NCBI GenBank assembly: GCA_964495675.1
Contig: CAZBWF010000001.1
Span: forward strand, 3,114 to 29,929
Direction of reading: 5' to 3'
Length of the DNA: 26,816 nt
Source of the DNA: an uncultured Gammaproteobacteria bacterium
GTDB taxonomy: Bacteria > Patescibacteriota > Patescibacteriia > UBA2169
Positions 1,981 through 26,816 of the stretch are shown here, piece after piece (position 1 is the stretch's first letter; each line of letters begins with the position of its first letter). Under the pieces are notes generated by a model that worked only from the letters and a program-made list of their open reading frames with translations, was not told the DNA's origin and made no database searches. The position numbers were made by a program, and so were the translations under genes.

Positions 1981-2736
1981 TTATGACCGCACCCCAATGC
2001 CCCACAAAAATTCAAAAATCTGTTTTAAACTGAATGCCAGATCCGGGGAATGAATAATATACGCCACCCCTTCTTTGCGCGTTGAAATAAGCCCAATGTT
2101 GTTTCCGTAAATATAGATGCTGGCTTTGAGGTCCACATATTCCGGAAAGTAGCGGATTTGCCGGAGGTAGGGGGTTTGTTCGTTAAAGATGGGCTCGTTG
2201 TGGACGGTTTTTAATTTTACGCGCACCGAACGCGCATGTAGGCCTTTGGCTACGCGGCGCTTAACCCATTTTTTAATGTAGGTTGTATCGACGGTTTGGA
2301 GCGTGAGTTCGGAGGGGGAAAAATAAACGTATTCTTTTTTGGCTTTTTGGAGGATATCTTCATACACCTCGCGCGCGGCCAGCGGGCCTTGGAACAGGCG
2401 CACAAAAGGCGCTTCGGTTTTGTCCGCATAGAGCGCCAGAAAATCCGGGAGCAAATCCTTAAGCTCCTGCCGTTGCGCTTCAAATTTTTTGTAGAGTTCT
2501 TTTGGGGGAAGTGCGGCAAATGATTTTCGTTTGCCATGAAAAACCGTTTTGATAAGTCCGCGCTCTTCCAGCGCGCGCAGATTGTCGTACACCGCGGTGC
2601 GGCCGATTTTAAGGTCGCCGGCCAGCTCCTTTGCCGAGGACTCTCCGCGGCCAAGCGCGGCCAAGTACAGCCGGCTGCGCTGTTCGTCCAGCCCCGCAGC
2701 GGTAAGCCAGGAGATAAGATTAGTATTCATATTCAA
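1981..2736 (-). CDS. TrmB-family transcriptional regulator (N-terminal wHTH, C-terminal effector domain); start at 2736 or 2730
   Basis: 'SAKELAGDLKIGRTAVYDNLRALEERGLI' helix-turn-helix; C-terminal 'IYIYGNNIGLIS...AYIIHSPDLAFSLKQIFEFLW' typical of TrmB-like proteins. Confidence 0.85.
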   Translation of the reverse strand: MNMNTNLISWLTAAGLDEQRSRLYLAALGRGESSAKELAGDLKIGRTAVYDNLRALEERGLIKTVFHGKRKSFAALPPKELYKKFEAQRQELKDLLPDFLALYADKTEAPFVRLFQGPLAAREVYEDILQKAKKEYVYFSPSELTLQTVDTTYIKKWVKRRVAKGLHARSVRVKLKTVHNEPIFNEQTPYLRQIRYFPEYVDLKASIYIYGNNIGLISTRKEGVAYIIHSPDLAFSLKQIFEFLWGIGVRS

Positions 2737-11075: not shown

Positions 11076-11090
11076 ACAAATTGGGGCTTG

Positions 11091-11123
11091 CCCCTCCCCT
11101 CGCGAGGGGAGGGGTTTTTGTTT
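11091..11123 (+). terminator. Intrinsic terminator after ftsH
   Basis: CCCCTCCCCT-CGCG-AGGGGAGGGG (11091-11114) followed by TTTTTGTTT. Confidence 0.88.
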
Positions 11124-11134
11124 CTGGCAAAAAG

Positions 11135-11143
11135 TGGTATAAT
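11135..11143 (+). promoter_or_regulatory. Extended -10 element
   Basis: TGgTATAAT, 13 nt upstream of ATG 11157. Confidence 0.7.
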
Positions 11144-11156
11144 TAAAACAACCTGT

Positions 11157-12149
11157 ATGCCAGAACAACTGTACCGACCCCTGCTCCGCGGGGCGCTTAC
11201 CGCCGTCATCCGGCACCCTTTCTTATGGGTGCTCGGATTTATTGCCGCATTTTTGGGAACCGGCGGAGAGTATGAGTTTCTGCTCAACCTTTACCGCAGT
11301 ACGAGCGAAACGGGGCTGGGGGCGGATTTGGGGATTGCCTCGCTCCTTGGGGTGGTGAGCGAGAATGCGCTTTCCGGCCTCTCGAGCATTGTCGGGTTTT
11401 TTTCCGTCCAGGGCGCTCTCGTGCTCCTTGTTCTCCTTGTTATTGCGGCGATAATGATTGCCATTGTGGTTTCGGCCCAGGGCGGCCTCGTGTGGGCCGC
11501 GGCCCGCGTTATTGAGGACGAACGGGAGACGTTTTTCACCTCGTTCACGCAGGGCTTTTCCCAACTTTGGTCTCTTTTTTTCATTATCGTGGTGACTCGA
11601 TTTTTGGCCTTTTTTGTGTTTTCGGTTGTTGGCCTGCCCCTCCTCGCCGTGCTCATGCAGATTGATGCCCTGTCGGCAACGCAGTCCGTGCTCCTTGTGC
11701 TGTACGTGGTTGGCGCCCCGCTCTTTATACTCTTTTCTCTGATAGGAAAATATGCCACCGCCTTTCGGATGGTTGAGGGCAGAGGCACGCTCGAATCGGT
11801 AAGCCGCGGCATGCGCCTCTTTGCCGAGAACTGGCTCGTATCTGTTGAGATGGCGCTCGTGCTCTTTGTGGCGGTAGTTGCCAGCGGCGTGGCGTTTGTG
11901 CTCGCCATGCTCTTTGTGGCCATCCCGTTTGTCATTGCGGGCTTGGTGCTGGGCTCGGTTTCGGCCATAGGACTTCAGGCCGTGGTGGTTCTGGGAGTGG
12001 CAGTGGTGCTCTTTGCTCTCCTCGTGTTCGGAAGCGTCCTTACCGCTTTTCAGCTCACCGCATGGACCGCGCTTTTCCTCAAGATACGGAGCGGGGCCCA
12101 TCTTTCCAAGCTTATGCGGAGCATTGCTTCTCTTGCCGGCCGCGGCTAA
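11157..12149 (+). CDS. Multi-pass membrane hypothetical protein (about 330 aa; start moved from 11088)
   Basis: MPEQLYRPLLRGALTAVIRHPFLWVLGFIA...; about 6-7 hydrophobic segments. The track start at 11088 lies inside the ftsH terminator and upstream of the promoter. Confidence 0.8.
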   Translation: MPEQLYRPLLRGALTAVIRHPFLWVLGFIAAFLGTGGEYEFLLNLYRSTSETGLGADLGIASLLGVVSENALSGLSSIVGFFSVQGALVLLVLLVIAAIMIAIVVSAQGGLVWAAARVIEDERETFFTSFTQGFSQLWSLFFIIVVTRFLAFFVFSVVGLPLLAVLMQIDALSATQSVLLVLYVVGAPLFILFSLIGKYATAFRMVEGRGTLESVSRGMRLFAENWLVSVEMALVLFVAVVASGVAFVLAMLFVAIPFVIAGLVLGSVSAIGLQAVVVLGVAVVLFALLVFGSVLTAFQLTAWTALFLKIRSGAHLSKLMRSIASLAGRG

Positions 12150-12214
12150 GGTTAGGAGAACCTTGGGGATATGCTGTGGAACGTGAAGGCGTTCTTTTTT
12201 TGGACCGCGTGCGG

Positions 12215-12220
12215 TACAAT
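12215..12220 (+). promoter_or_regulatory. -10-like element 8 nt before the dnaN ATG (possible leaderless mRNA)
   Basis: TACAAT-TACCGCCT-ATG; no convincing -35 and no Shine-Dalgarno. Confidence 0.5.
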
Positions 12221-12228
12221 TACCGCCT

Positions 12229-13323
12229 ATGAAACTATCGTGCACGCAAGAAAATCTGGCCGCCGGCCTTGCCTTGGTGGGGCCGGTTGCCGCTCGCGGC
12301 GGGACGTTGCCTATCTTGGGCAACATTCTCCTTGAGGCGCGGGAGGGGGCGCTGACGCTCTCCGCAACCAACCTCGAGATTGGCGTCACGGCGCACGTCC
12401 GCGGGAAAATCGAGCAGGAGGGGACGTTTACGGTTCTCGGCCGGCTTTTTCACGATTACGTTAATTTGCTTCCGAAAGAAAACGTTGCTCTCGCGCTTGC
12501 GGGCGAGCATCTCTCTATTCGCGCCGGCAACCAACAGACGAAAATCCACGGGCTCTCGGCCGAGGAGTTCCCGGTGATTCCGCGCATTGAGGGCGCTTCC
12601 GCAACCGCGCTCGACGCGGCCGAAATGCACGAAGCGCTCTCCCAAGTGCTGTTTGCTGTTGCCGCAAGCGACGCGCGGCCAGAACTCTCGGGCGTGCTGC
12701 TCCGTTTTTCCGCGGATGCCCTTACGGTGGTTGGCACGGATTCCTACCGCCTGGCCGAGCGTACCGTGCCGCTCAAATCCGGCTCAAACGAACCGCGGGA
12801 TGCCATTGTCCCCCTCCGAACCATGCAGGAGCTTGCGCGCATCTTGGGCGCTGTTTCCGGCGAGCTCTCGATTGCTGCGAGCGAGAATCAGATTCTGTTT
12901 TCAGTTGAGGAGGCGGAGCTCGTTTCGCGCGTTATTGTGGGCACGTTCCCGGACTACCGCCAAATTATTCCCACCGCGAGCAAGACCACAGTAACGCTCG
13001 GGAAAGAGCCGCTCTCGCGCGCCATAAAATCCGCGTCGCTTTTTTGCCGCCAGGGTTTGAACCACGTGTCGCTCCAGTTTTCATCGGACAGAATTTTGGT
13101 TTCGGCCTCTTCATCCCAGGCCGGAGAAAACATGATCGAGGTTCCGGCGAACATTCAGGGGGCGGACGTGGACATTGTGTTCGATTACCGCTTTTTACTC
13201 GACGGCCTTGCCGCGATTCCAGGCTCGGATGTGGTCATTGCACTCAACACCAGCGCAAACCCGGGCGTGCTCACGCCACAAGAGAACGGGTACCTGTATT
13301 TGGTGATGCCCATAAAGCAGTAA
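12229..13323 (+). CDS. dnaN: DNA polymerase III beta sliding clamp
   Basis: 364 aa; 'LPILGNILL', 'ATNLEIG', 'RPELSGV', 'VGTDSYRLAE', 'FPDYRQIIP', C-terminal 'YLVMPI'. Confidence 0.97.
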   Translation: MKLSCTQENLAAGLALVGPVAARGGTLPILGNILLEAREGALTLSATNLEIGVTAHVRGKIEQEGTFTVLGRLFHDYVNLLPKENVALALAGEHLSIRAGNQQTKIHGLSAEEFPVIPRIEGASATALDAAEMHEALSQVLFAVAASDARPELSGVLLRFSADALTVVGTDSYRLAERTVPLKSGSNEPRDAIVPLRTMQELARILGAVSGELSIAASENQILFSVEEAELVSRVIVGTFPDYRQIIPTASKTTVTLGKEPLSRAIKSASLFCRQGLNHVSLQFSSDRILVSASSSQAGENMIEVPANIQGADVDIVFDYRFLLDGLAAIPGSDVVIALNTSANPGVLTPQENGYLYLVMPIKQ

Positions 13324-19660: not shown

Positions 19661-21895
19661 ATGTACTTCAAATTTGGCTTATTGTGCGTAGCGCTTCTTG
19701 CCTCCGTCTCCTTGGCGCAAGCCGCAACGCCGGAGGAGCAAATAAACGAAATCAAGCGCCAGGCGGACCGGACGTGCGTGCGGCTCCAGCCCAGAGTGAA
19801 TTCCGCGCTTTTCAGCTTGTCGAGCGCCAACGAACTCACGAGCATTTCCCGAGAGCGAGCCGAGCTCAAAACCGATATTGCGAGCACAACCGATAGCGTG
19901 AAAGCGCGGCTCGACAGCTGGTGCGCAACCATGCGCACCAGCCCCCCGGCCACGCTGGAGGCGGTTTCCGCGCTCGCTGACCAGCTGAATGAAATAAAGG
20001 TCGAAGAGAATTTTCTGCCGACATTCGGGTTGCTTGAGTCATTTGATGCCATACTTGGCGATTTTGTCGAGCTGAAATCAGCTGTTGGCGATGCCACTTC
20101 CGGCGGAATTGTGAAAGATAAAAACGATTTTGCCGGCGGCGTTGCCGGGGCAGCGGCGGATGCCGCCGTCGAGGCGCGCATCAATCAGGCCGTTTCGGAT
20201 GCGCAGACGAAATTGGGCGAAGCGCAATCCGCGCTTCCGCCTGATGAGCTTTTCCGGCAGGCCCCGGCGCAATCCGCGGCGGCCTCGGCAGAAACGCAGA
20301 GGACCATTGACTCCAAAATAAAAGCAGTCAAAAGCGCGGTTGCGGCAGGCAGGGCGCACGTTAAAAAAGCGCGCGCTGATTTGGACGCAAAGCTTGAACG
20401 CGCCGCGCTCGAGAGCGTTTCCCCATCAGGCAAGAGCGCGGCGTATCAAGCGGCGTATGCCGCGGCCCGCGAACGCGTTGCCCAAGCCAAGCGGGGCGCT
20501 ATTCGGAGCGTTGAGTCGAGAATCCGGGGCTTGGGGCGGCTTAAGGGGCTCGTGGAGCAGGCGTCTCTTTTGAGCGAGGGAACGCGCGGTGACTTAGTGG
20601 CGGATGCGAGCTATCGCCTGGGCGTCCTCACCTCCATCAAGAGTGCGCTTGAGGCCGCCGGTGCTGACACCCGCTACTCCGCGATTACGGCCCAAGAGCG
20701 CCGCGTTGCAGAGCTGAAGCTTGATGTGATTGTTCCAGCCATCAATGACATGCTTGAATGGGAGGACGCGCTCGAAATTTTGAACGGCCAAACCACCGCG
20801 AACGCGTCTTTGGAATCCGGGCTTCGTGATTTTGTCGCCATTATGCAAAACGAGCAAAAAAAAGCCGCGATTGCCGCCGCGCTTGGGGCAGCGCGCATGG
20901 CGCCGTTGACGCAGCAGCTTGCGGCCATAAATCTGAACCAATTTAATGATCAGCTGATTGTGACCCAAGCGCAGGCCGTGTTTAACCCCACAGACGCAGA
21001 AGGGAGCGCGGGAAAAACCATGATTACCTCGGGCTCCTCGGCAGAAAGGGACGCCATACTCGTGCATGAGCTCACGCGGCTCATTGATGACTTTCAAAAA
21101 ACCCTTGGCCCGGAGCGAAAAAAGGTGGAGCGCGCGCGCAAGGACTGGCTCGCCTTGGTTAAGGAGGCCGCATCGAGCGGAAAAATTACGGACCTTGCGC
21201 CGTTTGTGGACGATATCCGCGCCCAGAAGATTTTTGACGAGTTTAATGAGCGGCGCGAAACGTTCTACGCGCAGGCGGGCCGGCTGGTGGGGCTCCGGAA
21301 GGGCGCCATTGCAAAAAACGCGGAACGCATAGCCGCCCGTACCGCCATTCCGCAAGCGGCGCGCATTGGCAACAATCTGGCGGATTTCACCTCGGCAGTG
21401 GTCAGCCAGCTGGACGCGCACGAAACAGCCATGCGCGCGACCGCGGACTACCTTGCGCTCCGCGAAAAGGTTCGCGACATCACCACACTCGGCGTCAACA
21501 CGGTGTTTATTCCGGCACAGCGGCTGTATCTTGACGCGGACAAATTTTTCACGCGGCAGGCCGTTCTCCGCGTCATCAGCGGCGCGCTCATCACTCGCGC
21601 GCAGGCCCTACCCGGTTCGCACGCTTCCCGCGATACCTTGGTGCAGCAGGCGCAGGCCGTTGATACCAGAATTTCCAACGTCGGAACACAACTCTCCGCG
21701 GCGCTGACTGGGCCATTGAACCAGGCGCTCGCGCTTCGCGCGAGCGCGCAAACCGCCGCAGATGTTACTGCGGCCGAGGAGCAGCTTGACGCCGCGGCCG
21801 CGGCCATTGGCGCCGCGCGGAAAGAGCTCGGCACCCTGCGGCGGGATGTTTCGAGCTTGCTCCGGAGCATACAGCAAGCCGAGAAAACGCCGTAG
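19661..21895 (+). CDS. Large secreted Ala-rich alpha-helical protein of unknown function
   Basis: 744 aa; signal peptide MYFKFGLLCVALLASVSLAQA with AQA cleavage site; amphipathic helical composition; no recognisable catalytic motif. Confidence 0.8.
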   Translation: MYFKFGLLCVALLASVSLAQAATPEEQINEIKRQADRTCVRLQPRVNSALFSLSSANELTSISRERAELKTDIASTTDSVKARLDSWCATMRTSPPATLEAVSALADQLNEIKVEENFLPTFGLLESFDAILGDFVELKSAVGDATSGGIVKDKNDFAGGVAGAAADAAVEARINQAVSDAQTKLGEAQSALPPDELFRQAPAQSAAASAETQRTIDSKIKAVKSAVAAGRAHVKKARADLDAKLERAALESVSPSGKSAAYQAAYAAARERVAQAKRGAIRSVESRIRGLGRLKGLVEQASLLSEGTRGDLVADASYRLGVLTSIKSALEAAGADTRYSAITAQERRVAELKLDVIVPAINDMLEWEDALEILNGQTTANASLESGLRDFVAIMQNEQKKAAIAAALGAARMAPLTQQLAAINLNQFNDQLIVTQAQAVFNPTDAEGSAGKTMITSGSSAERDAILVHELTRLIDDFQKTLGPERKKVERARKDWLALVKEAASSGKITDLAPFVDDIRAQKIFDEFNERRETFYAQAGRLVGLRKGAIAKNAERIAARTAIPQAARIGNNLADFTSAVVSQLDAHETAMRATADYLALREKVRDITTLGVNTVFIPAQRLYLDADKFFTRQAVLRVISGALITRAQALPGSHASRDTLVQQAQAVDTRISNVGTQLSAALTGPLNQALALRASAQTAADVTAAEEQLDAAAAAIGAARKELGTLRRDVSSLLRSIQQAEKTP

Positions 21896-21898
21896 CGC

Positions 21899-22840
21899 CT
21901 ACAGCGCGCTCGCGCCTTCGCGGTAAAACGCCGCCGCGTCCTCGGGCGCGACGGAGTTGATGATGATGCCCGAGCCGATTTCAATCCCTGCCCAGAACTG
22001 GCCGCGGGGCGTTACTTTAATGTACAGGTGCTGGTCCTCCTCCTCTACCACCTGATGAAAGTAATAGTTGTAGGAGAGCCCCATGGTGCTGATGCGGCCG
22101 AGCACGTGTTTGAGGATTGTGGCGATGGAACGGCGCTCGGCGGCCGTGAGCGCGCTGACGTTGTCCGCCAAGCGCTTGGGCATAATCCAGCACTCATAGT
22201 TGTGCATGGAGGCGTACGGCGCGAAGCAGGCCGCGTGGCGATTTTCCCAGATCGCGCGCGGGCCTTTCATTTCTTTTTTGAGAATGTCGAGATAGGGATG
22301 CGTGCCGCGCTTCAGGCGGTACTCGAGCGTCTTCTGCAGTTTGTCGGCAATGTGGGGCGGCACGAAGCTGGTTGCGAATATTTGGGAATGGGCGTGCCGA
22401 ATGGAGGCGCCGGCCCGGCCCCCGTCGTTTTTAAAGACGAGGATGTAGTTGATGTCCTTAATTTTTTGTATGGCTCGGGTTCTTTCGGCGTAGACCTCAA
22501 GGAGCTCGGCAATGTGGCGCACCGGCAGCTCATCGAGCCCTTGGTTCGGGTCCGGGGTCTCAATGACCACCTCCTGCGTGCCGTAGGCCTTTGGGTTATC
22601 GAGAGTTACGGCCGGAAATTTGTTGCGGACGACCTTTATGCGCCAGGCCCGTTCCCCACCCACCGTGAGGAGCGCTTTTTCCCTTTCTACATTCTTGGGG
22701 TGAAAAATAGATTCCTCCGGATTCTCGTAGGGCTCCACCTGGTGGGGCACTTCCAACTCGTGCGGCCGCCTTCCGCGCCGAGGCGCTATGATAACGTAGT
22801 GGTCCTGCAGGTAATCTTTCCGCAGTTCGGGTTTACGCAT
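21899..22840 (-). CDS. GalT-like (HIT superfamily) sugar-1-phosphate nucleotidyltransferase, 313 aa; start moved from 23074
   Basis: 'ELRKDYLQDHYVIIAPRRGRRP', 'VVRNKFPA', 'EVVIETPD', 'FKNDGGRAGASIRHAHSQIFA' (HxHxQ). Substrate not certain, so no galT symbol given. Confidence 0.88.
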   Translation of the reverse strand: MRKPELRKDYLQDHYVIIAPRRGRRPHELEVPHQVEPYENPEESIFHPKNVEREKALLTVGGERAWRIKVVRNKFPAVTLDNPKAYGTQEVVIETPDPNQGLDELPVRHIAELLEVYAERTRAIQKIKDINYILVFKNDGGRAGASIRHAHSQIFATSFVPPHIADKLQKTLEYRLKRGTHPYLDILKKEMKGPRAIWENRHAACFAPYASMHNYECWIMPKRLADNVSALTAAERRSIATILKHVLGRISTMGLSYNYYFHQVVEEEDQHLYIKVTPRGQFWAGIEIGSGIIINSVAPEDAAAFYREGASAL

Positions 22841-23963
22841 GGCGGTTGCTTTTAATGACGTTATGGTATGCTGTTTCGTATTCCTCCACCATGCGTTCGG
22901 GCGAAAAATGCTTCTCAACATGCGCCCTGCACGCGCGCCGCATGGCTTGGTAGTCCGCTTCCGGCATGGCGTACAATTTTTTGACGCTTGCCGCCATCTC
23001 GCGCTCATTTCTGACGATGAAGCCGGTGACGCCGTTTTTAATAACTTCCGGCACCGAGCCGCGCTTGAACGCAAGTACCGGCGTGCCGCATGCCATTGCT
23101 TCTATCATCACGAGTCCAAATGGTTCATCCCATTGAATGGGGAAGAGGAGGGCCTTGGCTTTTTTGAGGAATGCAAAGCGGCGATTGCCCGCGAGCATGC
23201 CAAGATCAATTGCGTCCCCCTTCGCAACGGCCTGCCCATCCGTTTCGTTTCCGCTCCTGCCAGCCATTTTGAGCGGCAGATTTGCTTTTTGCGCTACCCG
23301 CACGGCAACGTCAAGACCCTTTTCCGGCGCGTACCGTCCCAAAAACGCAAGGTAGTTTTCCGGGCGTTCGCCGAACGGTATGGCGCGAACGTTAATGCCG
23401 TGGTGAATGACTGCCACCCAGTTCAATCGCGCGCGTTTTTTTTGGTTATGCGAGATGGCAATGTACCGGTGCTGGGCAAACCGCTCGGTTCGCCACCGCT
23501 CAATGCTTCCGGCCGGACGAATCGGGTCGTGCACCGTATAGAGCGTGGGGCTGCCGGTTGCTTCTTCAAAATAGTGCGCGAAGTCGTTGTGATACGAGTG
23601 GATAAGGTCAAGTTCTCCCCGTACTGCCATGCGGTAGGCGCGCGCGGTCAGATCCAGCTCGTATTCGCGCTTGCTCGAGTAGAGGAGCGCGAGCGAGCGT
23701 TCCGGCTCGCGCGGCGGCTGGTTTTTTGCCTGAGAGAGTTTTTGCTCGATGAACCGATCTTCGCCGGAAACGAGCCGCGCGTCAGTGCGCGTGCCAGGGG
23801 CGGCAAAAAGCGTTACGCGGTGGCCGCGCCGAGCGAGCCCGTCCGCGAGCGAAATGGCGAGTTCTCGGGGCGCAAAAATCCGATTCCCGAACCGCTTGGC
23901 TGACATGTACACCGAGGGAACCAGGATGCCGATGGCAAATTTGTTACGGCGTTTTTGTCCCAT
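22833..23963 (-). CDS. GT4 glycosyltransferase (resembles the AviGT4-like subgroup)
   Basis: 376 aa; 'FLGRYAPEKGLDVAVRVA', 'EPFGLVMIEAMACGTPV'. Confidence 0.9.
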   Translation of the reverse strand: MGQKRRNKFAIGILVPSVYMSAKRFGNRIFAPRELAISLADGLARRGHRVTLFAAPGTRTDARLVSGEDRFIEQKLSQAKNQPPREPERSLALLYSSKREYELDLTARAYRMAVRGELDLIHSYHNDFAHYFEEATGSPTLYTVHDPIRPAGSIERWRTERFAQHRYIAISHNQKKRARLNWVAVIHHGINVRAIPFGERPENYLAFLGRYAPEKGLDVAVRVAQKANLPLKMAGRSGNETDGQAVAKGDAIDLGMLAGNRRFAFLKKAKALLFPIQWDEPFGLVMIEAMACGTPVLAFKRGSVPEVIKNGVTGFIVRNEREMAASVKKLYAMPEADYQAMRRACRAHVEKHFSPERMVEEYETAYHNVIKSNRHA

Positions 23964-25158
23964 TGGTTTTTACTCCATTGCCGTTTATGCTCCGCGTATA
24001 TATGGCAATAAATTTATCAGAAATAATCTGCCAGGTAAACTTTTCTTCAACAATCCGCCGCGCCTGCTCTCCCATTGTTTTGTTTCGTTCCGCATCATTG
24101 AAGAGCATGTTGACTTTTTCGGCGATGTCCGTGGCGTTGCGCGGTTTTACAAAGAGTCCGTTGACGCCGTCTTTGACCGCGAGCGGTATGCCCCCCTTGC
24201 GGGTGACCACCACCGGCGCCTGGTACACCATGGCTTCGAGGATGACGAGCCCGAGCGGTTCATCCCACACCGAGGGCGCAATGAGCACGTCGGCCCGGGC
24301 GTAGAGCTTTTTGAGCCGCTCGGCGCCGCTCTGGCCGATGTACCCCAGCATATGGACATTCTGCAACCCGAGAGAGCGCTTGAGGGAGCGCAGTTTTTTC
24401 ATTTCAGGCCCATCCCCGATAATCAGCACCTCGCCTTGGATTTTTGCGGCGGCGCGGACAATGTATTCGACTCCCTTTTCCGGCGTGAGCCGGCCCACAA
24501 AGAGCGCAACCTTTTTTTCGGCCAAGCCGTATCGATTGTCTATGGATTTTGTGCGCTGTTTTTTTCGGTGGTCCTCGATGTTGATGCCGCCCGGAATGAT
24601 ATTGGTTTTGCGGGAAAGCTCGTAGAGCGATTGGCCCTCGAACATATCAAGAAACCACCGGCGGGTGTGGCCTGATACAGCCGTAATGCGCTTGGCATCG
24701 CGGACCGAGTGCACGGTCATATTATAAAACCGGCGGTCGTCCTTGAGATGCTTGAGATCGCTGCCGTGGGTGGTGGCAATGTAGTTAATGTTCGTGAGGT
24801 CGTGAATATAACGGGCGAGCATGGAGAGGAGCCCCAGGTGGTGGTAGTGGATGATGTCGGGCTTGAATTGCTCAACGGCGCGGGTCGTGGTTGCGAGGTA
24901 CGCGCGGTAGAGCTTGGTTATTTCAGTGGTCGTAAGGTCGCGGTAGAGCTTTGAGCCCTTGAGCTCCGGGTGGCCGATGAACACCGGAAGCGGAAAGGGC
25001 GGCTTAACATAAAATTGCCGAACTTTGGCAATCTGCCTCCGTTCGGGCGCAACCAGAGCCACGGTGTGTTTTTTTGCCACTTGGGCCATAAGGTTCCGGA
25101 GGAACGTTCCGGACCCCGAGCCCCATAAGGGAAAATCGTAGAGATAGAGTATTTTCAT
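23944..25158 (-). CDS. GT4 glycosyltransferase (404 aa; start moved from 25251)
   Basis: MKILYLYDF..., 'PDIIHYHH', 'TTHGSDL', 'FVGRLTPEKG', 'EPLGLVILEAM'; ATG overlaps the upstream stop (ATGA). Confidence 0.9.
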   Translation of the reverse strand: MKILYLYDFPLWGSGSGTFLRNLMAQVAKKHTVALVAPERRQIAKVRQFYVKPPFPLPVFIGHPELKGSKLYRDLTTTEITKLYRAYLATTTRAVEQFKPDIIHYHHLGLLSMLARYIHDLTNINYIATTHGSDLKHLKDDRRFYNMTVHSVRDAKRITAVSGHTRRWFLDMFEGQSLYELSRKTNIIPGGINIEDHRKKQRTKSIDNRYGLAEKKVALFVGRLTPEKGVEYIVRAAAKIQGEVLIIGDGPEMKKLRSLKRSLGLQNVHMLGYIGQSGAERLKKLYARADVLIAPSVWDEPLGLVILEAMVYQAPVVVTRKGGIPLAVKDGVNGLFVKPRNATDIAEKVNMLFNDAERNKTMGEQARRIVEEKFTWQIISDKFIAIYTRSINGNGVKTNGTKTP

Positions 25159-26156
25159 ACGTGTTGTACCATCTCCATGGCGGCTTTCGCCTCCCGTGGC
25201 TCGGCCGGTTCCTTGGTAAGAAAGTAAATCACGGTTCGCAGGGATGTCCACGCTTGGTATAGTTTGATGCGCTCCCAGGCCGCGCCGTCGAGCGCTACGT
25301 TTCTGGCGGCGGCGTAATGGGCGAGAAACGTTTTTTGGAGCGAGCGCACCTCGTCTTTTGTCCGCCAGCCCGCTGCCATAAAGGTGAGCTGGGTAAGGAA
25401 GTTTCCCACGTCGCGCGCCCAGTCCGCGAGGCAGATATCCGTGAAATCAATGCCCGAAACGCCGCCGTCTCGCTCCGCAACAATCACGTTCTCTGGATGA
25501 AAGTCGCCATGGATGAGGCACAACCGGTCAAGCGTTGCAAGCGTGCGCTCCTCGCGCTCGGCAAGCTCCGCAAAGTGGTGCTCCACATCAGGCCGGAATT
25601 CTGGAAAGAGCCGGCTGATTTTGGCAAGGAAATATTCTGGGCCTGGAATAACGGTTTTGATTCTGCTCGACTCGGGGTTAAAGTTTTCCACCGCATCAGT
25701 TGGGATTGCGTGGAGTTCCGCGAGCCACTCGGCCGCGCCGCGGATGTACTCGGCAATTGTATCTCCGCCCTTTCGAATGTAGTGGAGCAGTGTTCGTCCG
25801 GCAATGCCGCGGTACAGGAAGGCCGCAAGCGAGCGGTCGAAAAAGAGCGGTTCTGGCACAAAGAGCGCTCCTGTTTTGAATCCATGTTCAGTAATGAAGC
25901 GCAATGCGCGGTACGCGTTTTCGCGGCTTTCGTTCGAGTGCGCAGAACAAAAAATCGGCTTGTCACCGAACGCGGGCGCGTCGTAGCGAATTACGACGTG
26001 GTAGAAATCTACATCTATGTTACGTTTTATCGGTGTTGCTGTCAATCCCGAAAAAGTATATTCCCCCGCAAAGAGCGGCGCGTGGAGAGCAAGGTAGGAC
26101 GCGACAAACGCCGGATCAAACAGCTGCTCAATGGGGTGTTTTTTCCATGGTCGCAT
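25155..26156 (-). CDS. APH/choline-kinase-like small-molecule phosphotransferase
   Basis: 333 aa; 'AEWLAELH', Brenner-type 'LIHGDFHPENVIV', metal-binding 'IDFTD'. Confidence 0.85.
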   Translation of the reverse strand: MRPWKKHPIEQLFDPAFVASYLALHAPLFAGEYTFSGLTATPIKRNIDVDFYHVVIRYDAPAFGDKPIFCSAHSNESRENAYRALRFITEHGFKTGALFVPEPLFFDRSLAAFLYRGIAGRTLLHYIRKGGDTIAEYIRGAAEWLAELHAIPTDAVENFNPESSRIKTVIPGPEYFLAKISRLFPEFRPDVEHHFAELAEREERTLATLDRLCLIHGDFHPENVIVAERDGGVSGIDFTDICLADWARDVGNFLTQLTFMAAGWRTKDEVRSLQKTFLAHYAAARNVALDGAAWERIKLYQAWTSLRTVIYFLTKEPAEPREAKAAMEMVQHV

Positions 26157-26157
26157 A

Positions 26158-26811
26158 TTACGCGTTTGCGCTTTTGTGTATTCGCATCGCCCTCCGGTAG
26201 AGCGTCAGATATTTTTTTGCGGGAATCTCCCAGGAGTGCGACTGCTGCATGCCCCGCTTGACGAGCCGCCGCCACGCGTCCGCATGCCGGTACACCTCAA
26301 GCGCGCGGGTAAGAGCAATTAAAAATTCCGGGGCGCCGTACTTGGTGAATACGAATCCGTTGCCCCTGCCGGTTCTGGGGTTGTAGTCCGTTACCGTGTC
26401 CGCCAGCCCGCCCACGGCGTGCACCACCGGCACGGAGCCGTACCGCAAGCTGATGAGCTGGCCCAATCCGCACGGCTCAAATCGCGATGGCATGAGGAAC
26501 ATGTCTGAACCCGCGTAAATCTCCGCGGCCGTGGTGGTATCAAACGCCAGGTGCGCCCCGACTTTTTCGGGGTAGCGCCTTACGAGCTGTTTGAAAAAAT
26601 TCTCATACTGCTTGCTTCCGGTTCCGGCAATGACGAGCTGGATATCCTGCGCCAGGAGCGTGTCCGCTATCTCCATGAGCAAGTCGAACCCTTTCTGCTC
26701 GGTAATGCGCGTGACCATGCCGAGGACGGGGACATCGCGGTTTTGCGGCAAGCCGAATGTTTTTTGGAGGCTTGTTTTGTTCGTGCTCTTTTTGTCGAGT
26801 GTGCGAGCGTC
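26158..26811 (-). CDS. glgA: Glycogen/starch synthase (GT5), C-terminal half; 5' part outside the window, in-frame TAA at 26812-26814
   Basis: Frame extends upstream of the track start: DARTLDKKSTNKTSLQKTFGLPQNRDVPVLGMVTRITEQKG...; 'FLMPSRFEPCGLGQLISLRYG.VPVVHAVGGLADTV' is the GT5 signature. Confidence 0.88.
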   Translation of the reverse strand, partial: DARTLDKKSTNKTSLQKTFGLPQNRDVPVLGMVTRITEQKGFDLLMEIADTLLAQDIQLVIAGTGSKQYENFFKQLVRRYPEKVGAHLAFDTTTAAEIYAGSDMFLMPSRFEPCGLGQLISLRYGSVPVVHAVGGLADTVTDYNPRTGRGNGFVFTKYGAPEFLIALTRALEVYRHADAWRRLVKRGMQQSHSWEIPAKKYLTLYRRAMRIHKSANA

Positions 26812-26816
26812 TTAGC

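Follow-up and report, generated by a model that had tools for sequence, protein, structure and literature searches.

A candidate alpha-glucan storage cluster of Patescibacteria linking glycogen synthase with non-canonical partners

Patescibacteria are a very large and mostly uncultured group whose genomes are tiny and whose carbon storage has received little study. Among described systems, those closest to the locus considered here are the classical glgC-glgA-glgB operon (with glgP and glgX), the GlgE pathway with its maltokinase Mak/Pep2, the Arabidopsis protein At5g18200, the tll1590-tll1591 gene pair and the bifidobacterial galacto-N-biose/lacto-N-biose (GNB/LNB) pathway. The latter pairs an APH-fold anomeric kinase, NahK, with a GalT (bioRxiv 10.64898/2026.09.13.751320), while TeGSS, of the tll1590-tll1591 pair, is a Thermosynechococcus UDP-glucose:sucrose alpha-1,2-glucosyltransferase whose enzymology has been reported (PMC9909042). 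Here we analyse a stretch of 26,816 nucleotides (contig CAZBWF010000001.1 of assembly GCA_964495675.1, positions 3,114 to 29,929), referred to below as the window, which carries at one end five genes encoding a glycogen synthase (GlgA), an APH-fold kinase, two family 4 glycosyltransferases (GT4a and GT4b) and a GalT-like protein. The families of all five could be identified, the genes are co-oriented with overlaps, and GlgA is associated with the kinase, the GalT-like protein and GT4b across deep divergence. The five genes may represent a clade-specific version of a Patescibacterial alpha-glucan (glycogen) storage module, a reading to which we attach roughly an even chance.

The genes are read from position 26816 towards 21899, on the minus strand, which the initial annotation had not specified, in the following order.

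26158-26811, minus strand: glgA fragment, 217 codons; junction to the kinase gene +1 nt.
25155-26156, minus strand: APH-fold kinase, 333 amino acids (aa); junction to GT4a -4 nt.
23944-25158, minus strand: GT4a, 404 aa, ATG at 25158; junction to GT4b -20 nt.
22833-23963, minus strand: GT4b, 376 aa; junction to the GalT-like gene -8 nt.
21899-22840, minus strand: GalT-like protein, 313 aa, ATG at 22840; last gene.

These junctions are exactly those given by the initial annotation, which had proposed a single coupled unit of five genes, and its family labels for all five are borne out by Pfam and NCBIfam. Since the genes overlap, they are probably co-transcribed and translationally coupled. The four complete genes of the window are also called, with identical lengths, on contig JACQLX010000024.1 (GCA_016203865.1), and two identical public contigs both end at window position 26651. 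The arrangement exceeds what chance would give and is seen again in at least eight related genomes.

The link with glycogen synthase extends far beyond the window. Eighty species-level kinase loci were mapped by tblastn, and in all 67 that offered enough upstream DNA a GT5 GlgA gene lies upstream of the kinase gene, either separated from it by one glycoside hydrolase family 57 (GH57) gene (60 loci) or directly (7 loci). Most commonly the order is yebC-ruvC-glgA-GH57-kinase-(PHP phosphoesterase)-(GH100/GDE_C-like hydrolase)-(GT4b)-second glgA. The PHP phosphoesterase gene is found 3′ of the kinase gene in 43 of 76 loci (e.g. L005, 11140-12006, and L086, 4882-5751); both are missing from L092, and the window clade has no PHP gene. 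Together, the two proteins hint at a kinase-phosphatase pair. A second GlgA gene occurs within 6 kb in 27 of the 46 loci concerned. The closest relatives of the window, whose kinases are 45-57% identical to its own, are L002, L003/L011, L004 and L006-L010, and they share its variant of the cluster. The window variant reads glgA-kinase, then either a second APH-like gene with a BshA-like GT4 gene or GT4a, then GT4b in one or two copies and the GalT-like gene; this order was found in L002, L003/L011, L006-L010 and on public contigs. No GH57 gene is present in the clusters of this variant, and in the window clade GT4 genes stand where most lineages have GH57, PHP and the second GlgA.

In every neighbourhood inspected, six types in all, the GalT-like gene lies directly 3′ of a GT5 GlgA gene or is separated from it by one small gene. 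Gene order near the Patescibacterial replication origin is generally conserved, and the block concerned also holds yebC, ruvC, tyrS, a penicillin-binding protein (PBP) gene, dciA and dnaN. The following arrangements were seen (GlgA2, second GlgA; GalTL, GalT-like).

L086-L089: GlgA-GH57-GH57-kinase-PHP-x-GlgA2-GalTL.
L092: GlgA-GH57-GH57-GlgA2-GalTL, with neither kinase nor PHP.
L093: GlgA-(small gene)-GalTL, in an unrelated genomic context outside the origin-proximal synteny block.
L094: GT4b-GlgA-APH kinase-GalTL, the last two genes overlapping by 8 nt.

As L093 is situated outside the synteny block, the GlgA-GalTL pairing is not merely a result of inherited origin-proximal synteny, and L094 displays the same four families as the window in another order. 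Hence the gene set is conserved together and tied to alpha-glucan genes, contrary to the scenario, considered by the initial annotation, in which it would not be. Annotated neighbourhoods, which extend 8-10 kb in both directions, contained no glgC, pgm, GT35 glgP, GH13 glgB or glgE gene. A GalU gene is located about 7 kb upstream in sister genomes (NTP_transferase, 364 bits against a cut-off of 326.8). The combination had been flagged as one that matches no described pathway, and indeed no published account of the cluster or of the kinase family was found in the literature searched.

Both GT4 proteins are predicted to be retaining, two-domain GT-B glycosyltransferases. GT4a matches the Pfam families Glycos_transf_1 (132 bits) and Glyco_transf_4 (57 bits), GT4b matches the same two families, and the E-x7-E motif reads E-PLGLVIL-E in GT4a and E-PFGLVMI-E in GT4b. 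Some GT4 enzymes make maltose-1-phosphate, sucrose or trehalose, as the initial annotation pointed out; an assignment of this kind is not supported here, since neither protein reaches the curated cut-offs for GlgM, TreT, sucrose-phosphate synthase (SPS) or BshA. With the NCBIfam models, GT4a obtains 133.7 bits against a cut-off of 273.7 for BshA and 123.7 against 302.4 for glgA_Coryne (GlgM type), whereas GT4b obtains 71.1 bits for BshA, 23.6 against 775 for TreT and 32.7 against 576 for the SPS domain. In the PDB, GT4a matches BshA (2jjm/5d00) best, in addition to SPS (6kih, tll1590) and GlgM (6tvp), and is a generic GT4 with these three as its nearest relatives. It is confined to the window clade, in which it occurs in the window, in L008 and L009 and as a partial copy in L006. 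GT4b can be placed by homology in the subfamily of TeGSS and UDP-glucose:tetrahydrobiopterin glucosyltransferase: residues 33-371 align with residues 24-343 of TeGSS (PDB 7fg9; E 4e-49, 170 bits), and the tetrahydrobiopterin enzyme is the next-best match. The acceptor-site residues Trp10 and Tyr18 of TeGSS belong to its N-terminal 23 residues, outside the alignment with GT4b. Homologues of GT4b adjoin GlgA in L094, L057, L072, L085, L067 and L038, the L094 protein being 35% identical to that of the window.

Sister genomes encode an extra GT4, here called GT4c (11931-13055 in L003, with equivalents in L002, L006, L007 and L010). This protein passes the BshA equivalog cut-off (467 bits against 273.7) and, if it is a BshA, would imply a product of the GlcNAc-malate type. 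Patescibacteria are not known to make bacillithiol. One may ask whether the GT4s, and perhaps the kinase, are simply unrelated neighbours of glgA, their order being inherited and their product a cell-surface glycan or some small glycoside, for instance a GlcNAc-malate of the bacillithiol type. Besides the score of GT4c, BshA is the best PDB match of GT4a, the acceptors used by relatives of GT4b are small and soluble, GT4a is limited to one clade, and the synteny block includes unrelated housekeeping genes. Nevertheless, GT4b, GlgA, the APH kinase and the GalT-like gene recur in a different order in L094, GT4b is found directly upstream of GlgA in several distant lineages, the genes overlap, and GT4a itself remains under the BshA cut-off. 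In our opinion an assembly of unrelated neighbours is improbable.

The kinase is best assigned to a separate, uncharacterised APH-fold family. APH is the sole Pfam family that it matches (75.9 bits), and the catalytic loop H216-G-D218-x-H220-x-E-N223, the I-D237-F-T-D motif with its metal-binding Asp and the N-lobe K44 are invariant in 21 homologues. Its AlphaFold2 model (pLDDT 93.4) has a two-lobed fold, for which Foldseek returned only generic APH-fold matches from the PDB (TM 0.5-0.65), namely PsiK, Rv3168, APH(9), 3csv and ethanolamine kinase. The initial annotation had raised the possibility of a Pep2/Mak maltokinase, and this identity had to be abandoned: PDB searches with the single sequence and with the family profile retrieved no sugar kinase, the profile giving no Mak or NahK structure at E<=1, Mak was absent from the top 50 structural matches, its N-terminal cap domain was not found with Pfam, and the annotated neighbourhoods contain no TreS or GlgE gene. 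The proposal that the APH kinase is the missing glucokinase is weakened by the ROK glucokinase-like genes that occur near the cluster in some lineages. The family is apparently restricted to Patescibacteria. Its homologues are labelled almost exclusively as Patescibacteria, Parcubacteria or Falkowbacteria (the wording 'uncultured Gammaproteobacteria' in some GTDB record titles is taken to come from the submitters), the window kinase is identical to an NCBI protein labelled 'Parcubacteria group bacterium', and relatives are encoded in 268 GTDB species representatives; among 1.84 billion representative proteins the profile found 121 at E<=1e-30 and 2656 at E<=0.001. In sister genomes the kinase gene is immediately followed by another APH-like gene (11002-11934 in L003; 10990-11916 in L002). 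The L003 version has HGM in place of HGD in the catalytic loop and is probably a pseudokinase; a related gene of L094 keeps HGD.

The GalT-like protein matches Pfam GalP_UDP_transf and aligns over its full length with At5g18200 from Arabidopsis (PDB 1z84; E 2.5e-35), as compared with 2.8e-19 for E. coli GalT and 4e-12 for the human enzyme. It scores below the galT cut-offs (85.2 bits against 102.1 for TIGR00209; 97.4 against 448 for PRK11720). The role of sugar-1-phosphate/UDP-sugar exchanger that had been envisaged for it does not fit well, ADP-glucose phosphorylase being a closer relative than GalT of either E. coli or humans; a HIT-superfamily nucleotidyltransferase or phosphorylase of the At5g18200 type appears to be the closest description. 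The nucleophile motif H149-A-H151-S-Q153 shows no variation among 20 homologues, and its counterpart in the At5g18200 alignment is H-S-H-S-Q. The zinc motifs have followed a different course. In the window clade the first CxxC is replaced, S-IFHP or S-VFHP standing for C-VFCP (residues ~42-50), and the window protein itself reads E-S-I-F-H-P where others have C-V-F-C-P; the second CxxC is also lost in the window protein, with T-H-P-Y-L-D for T-C-V-Y-C-D (residues ~180-186). Most other Patescibacterial homologues keep both motifs. As the GalT-like proteins of the window clade are still 65-69% identical, this altered form may, with some doubt, be considered remodelled but functional. The family as a whole is more conserved than the kinase (56-69% identity across Patescibacteria) and comprises 1397 clusters at E<=1e-10. 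In the literature searched, no bacterial glycogen synthase was found to have a GalT-like enzyme as its partner. One literature match for 'ADP-glucose phosphorylase' turned out to be a misnamed GlgC and was discarded.

A kinase next to a GalT-like protein also calls to mind a Leloir-like salvage route, in which a scavenged hexose such as galactose would be converted into a UDP-sugar for the GT4s, and the glucose-1-phosphate released would enter glycogen. The bifidobacterial GNB/LNB pathway couples the APH-fold NahK with GalT, the galT models do match the GalT-like protein (PRK11720 at 97 bits, TIGR00209 at 85.2 against 102.1), the GalU encoded nearby in sister genomes could supply UDP-glucose, and L094 shows an 8-nt overlap between the genes for the kinase and the GalT-like protein. 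Furthermore, some short GH57 enzymes are alpha-galactosidases. The scores with both galT models nonetheless stay below their curated cut-offs, and the protein resembles ADP-glucose phosphorylase more than it does GalT from E. coli or humans; NahK is not retrieved with the kinase profile, the annotated neighbourhoods contain no gene for GalE or a glycan phosphorylase, and the GalT-like gene is present without the kinase gene in L092 and L093. Such a route seems to us quite unlikely.

In most lineages the kinase is accompanied by putative glucan-degrading or glucan-remodelling enzymes. Profile searches revealed two GH57-kinase fusions, P0242 (735 aa) and P0276 (753 aa), with the GH57 part N-terminal and the kinase part C-terminal. 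The two are well diverged from each other; P0242 (L095, 207-2414) is known from a single 3.3-kb contig. The GH57 part of the fusions displays HxxQP, GQVEL, LPEMA and TDGE stretches, which are presumably its catalytic motifs. Provided that they are genuine, the fusions connect the kinase with the enzymology of alpha-glucans. Among the models compared, those of branching enzymes give the GH57 proteins of the clusters their best scores, although these are weak. GH100/GDE_C-like hydrolases are present in several clusters.

These associations raise the question of whether the cluster is mainly catabolic and serves to mobilise alpha-glucan, either stored or scavenged. The hydrolases would then liberate glucose or maltose, the kinase would be the equivalent of a glucokinase or maltokinase and would send the sugar back into glycolysis, and the GalT-like protein would act as an NDP-glucose (nucleoside diphosphate-glucose) phosphorylase in the downhill direction, so that glucose-1-phosphate and a nucleoside diphosphate are recovered, as would suit a nucleotide-auxotrophic symbiont. 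Such a role would agree with the fusions and with the 60 of 67 loci in which GH57 is directly upstream of the kinase, with the GH100/GDE_C-like hydrolases and with the description of At5g18200 as a phosphorylase, phosphorolysis being favourable by rough estimate. It would agree less well with the window clade, which keeps the kinase, GlgA and GalT-like genes with no GH57, GDE or PHP gene in the cluster, and with the resemblance of the GH57 proteins to branching enzymes, since branching frees no sugar. In addition, the GalT-like gene always follows a synthase gene and never a hydrolase gene, and some of these genomes already have a ROK glucokinase-like gene. We consider the catabolic alternative possible but unlikely.

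The glgA gene itself requires comment. Its identification as a glycogen synthase stands, with the qualification that the window holds a C-terminal fragment only, preceded by an in-frame TAA; the N-terminal half, which would carry Glyco_transf_5 and the KxGGL motif, is beyond the end of the window. The fragment scores 278 bits with the NCBIfam GlgA model NF001898 (model positions ~267-477) and 259 bits with TIGR02095, values that fall under the full-length cut-offs because only 217 residues are inside the window. According to these models the C-terminal nucleotide-sugar-binding domain is present, and the fragment shares 66% identity with the complete GlgA of L003; in sister genomes GlgA is full length (489-490 aa) and contains Glyco_transf_5. 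The TAA aligns with a Tyr conserved in L002 and L003. Recoding of this stop codon was considered and rejected: TAA, TGA and TAG all terminate neighbouring genes at homologous C-termini, and recoding is therefore unlikely. The codon reflects either a contig-end error or a pseudogene. In the latter case the locus might be decaying, with glgA a pseudogene, the GalT-like protein inactive without its zinc sites and the cassette a relic. The position of the TAA at a conserved Tyr, the improbability of recoding and the loss of both CxxC motifs from the window protein would be in line with decay. The codon is, on the other hand, only 3-5 nt from the window end and the public assemblies break about 160 nt away from it, at 26651, which makes a contig-end error plausible. 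In addition, the reading frames of the four complete genes are intact, HxHxQ is conserved, and the loss of the first CxxC is common to a clade whose members are 65-69% identical, indicative of purifying selection. We regard decay as very improbable.

If the five genes do constitute a storage module, a possible division of labour can be proposed; the order of steps put forward by the initial annotation (kinase, GalT-like protein, GT4s, GlgA) is likewise an inference. GlgA (GT5) would polymerise alpha-1,4-glucan from NDP-glucose, and the GalT-like protein, via a covalent nucleoside monophosphate on His151, would interconvert NDP-glucose and glucose-1-phosphate for GlgA. By analogy with At5g18200, the likeliest reaction would be ADP-glucose + inorganic phosphate <-> glucose-1-phosphate + ADP, which could run towards ADP-glucose while GlgA draws the product off. 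The kinase might use ATP to phosphorylate a free sugar derived from the glucan (glucose or maltose) and thereby feed the GalT-like step; C1 would be the likeliest site, because Mak, NahK and AmgK, which are sugar kinases with an APH fold, act at the anomeric position. GT4b, and probably GT4a too, could build a short soluble alpha-glucoside from UDP-glucose, possibly supplied by the GalU encoded upstream in sister genomes, and this glucoside could serve as a GlgA primer or as a compatible solute. It is tempting to go one step further and to envisage GlgC-independent glycogen synthesis at a cost of one ATP per glucose, in which the kinase turns free glucose (or maltose) straight into the 1-phosphate, the phosphorylase, working in reverse, recharges the ADP that GlgA releases, GlgA polymerises and, in the window clade, TeGSS-like GT4s provide the primer. 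The formation of ADP-glucose from ADP and glucose-1-phosphate is uphill by about 10 kJ/mol, a rough estimate from textbook energies, and we hold this extension to be doubtful for that reason; a high concentration of glucose-1-phosphate would be needed, which an anomeric kinase could provide.

Besides this energetic cost, several observations weigh against a storage module as proposed here. Since gene order near the origin is generally conserved, adjacency by itself is weak evidence. Only 6 of 46 kinase-centred loci have the GalT-like gene in their downstream flank, so that the coupling between kinase and GalT-like protein looks looser than that between kinase and GlgA. The window GalT-like protein is devoid of both CxxC zinc motifs, and class I GalTs are reported to require their zinc site. 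The in-frame TAA at 26812-26814 interrupts glgA. Sequence and structure searches yielded no close characterised relative of the kinase, and a ROK glucokinase-like gene lies close to the cluster in L086, L088 and L094. Finally, the score of GT4c suggests that the product might be a small molecule with no relation to glycogen.

Should the storage reading hold, the locus would be a glycogen gene cluster with non-canonical partners, in which two enzymes from outside the textbook glycogen pathways are linked to glycogen synthase. The gene module is kept across lineages whose kinases share only ~35-57% identity. This suggests either that glucose is activated more cheaply or that sugar phosphates and nucleotides are recovered in a salvage loop, and either option would suit energy-poor, nucleotide-dependent symbionts. 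If the GlgC-independent route were true, it would be a new pathway. Functions would also follow for the kinase family, with its hundreds of members, and for the GalT-like family, with more than 1000 clusters.

The remainder of the window is made up of housekeeping genes (yidC, rnpA, an asparaginase gene, gyrA, a gene for an S1-domain protein and ftsH), together with dnaN, dciA, tyrS and genes for a class A PBP and a TrmB-family regulator. The locus is chromosomal and its host is a Parcubacteria-type Patescibacterium of the Candidate Phyla Radiation. Convergent with the GalT-like gene, the two stop codons being 3 nt apart, is an open reading frame (19661-21895, plus strand) whose 744-aa product is rich in alanine, has an N-terminus resembling a signal peptide and matches neither Pfam nor NCBIfam models; a 737-aa variant is encoded on contig L091. 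The dnaN gene (12229-13323) is preceded by a membrane-like open reading frame instead of dnaA (region 11088-13323), while dnaA adjoins dnaN in L088, L092 and L094. The TrmB-family gene (1981-2736, minus strand) encodes a sugar-responsive type of regulator that may control the glycogen cluster; a TrmB gene is also close to the glycogen cluster in L005, L072 and L085.

Comparison with the known systems helps to define what is particular to the Patescibacterial cluster. Like the classical glgC-glgA-glgB operon, it is anchored on a GT5 GlgA of the ADP-glucose type, and most related lineages have hydrolase-like genes and GH57s with weak branching-enzyme likeness nearby; unlike that operon, it is not accompanied by GlgC, GH13 GlgB or GT35 GlgP in the annotated neighbourhoods, and it comprises an APH kinase, a GalT-like protein, GT4s and often a PHP phosphoesterase. 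The kinase resembles Mak/Pep2 of the GlgE pathway in its APH-like fold, its presumed dependence on ATP and its link with alpha-glucan genes, but there is no relationship at the sequence level, the N-terminal cap domain of Mak is missing and neither TreS nor GlgE is encoded in the annotated neighbourhoods. With the GNB/LNB pathway (NahK, GalT2 and GalE) the cluster has in common that an APH-fold kinase, there a sugar kinase, is encoded with a GalT-family enzyme. Yet GalT2 belongs to class II and the window protein is class I-like; moreover, set beside the GNB/LNB and the Leloir pathways, the cluster has neither GalE nor a disaccharide phosphorylase, and its partners are GlgA and GH57. At5g18200 (1Z84/2H39), a HIT-superfamily member of the class I GalT group, is the best solved full-length relative of the GalT-like protein. 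It has both CxxC motifs and the window protein neither, but they share AGAS-x-x-H-x-H-S-Q and the C-terminal E-I-G-[ST]-G-x-x-I-N-x-V-x-P-E; no role beside glycogen synthase was found described for At5g18200 in the literature. The tll1590-tll1591 (SPS-TeGSS) pair differs in that GT4a is slightly nearer to BshA than to SPS and reaches no curated cut-off, and in that the Patescibacterial cluster has no gene for a sucrose-phosphate phosphatase. In return, GT4b is homologous to TeGSS over its full length (E 4e-49), GT4a matches the C-terminal domain of tll1590 (E 1e-21), and both systems have their two GT4 genes side by side in the same order.

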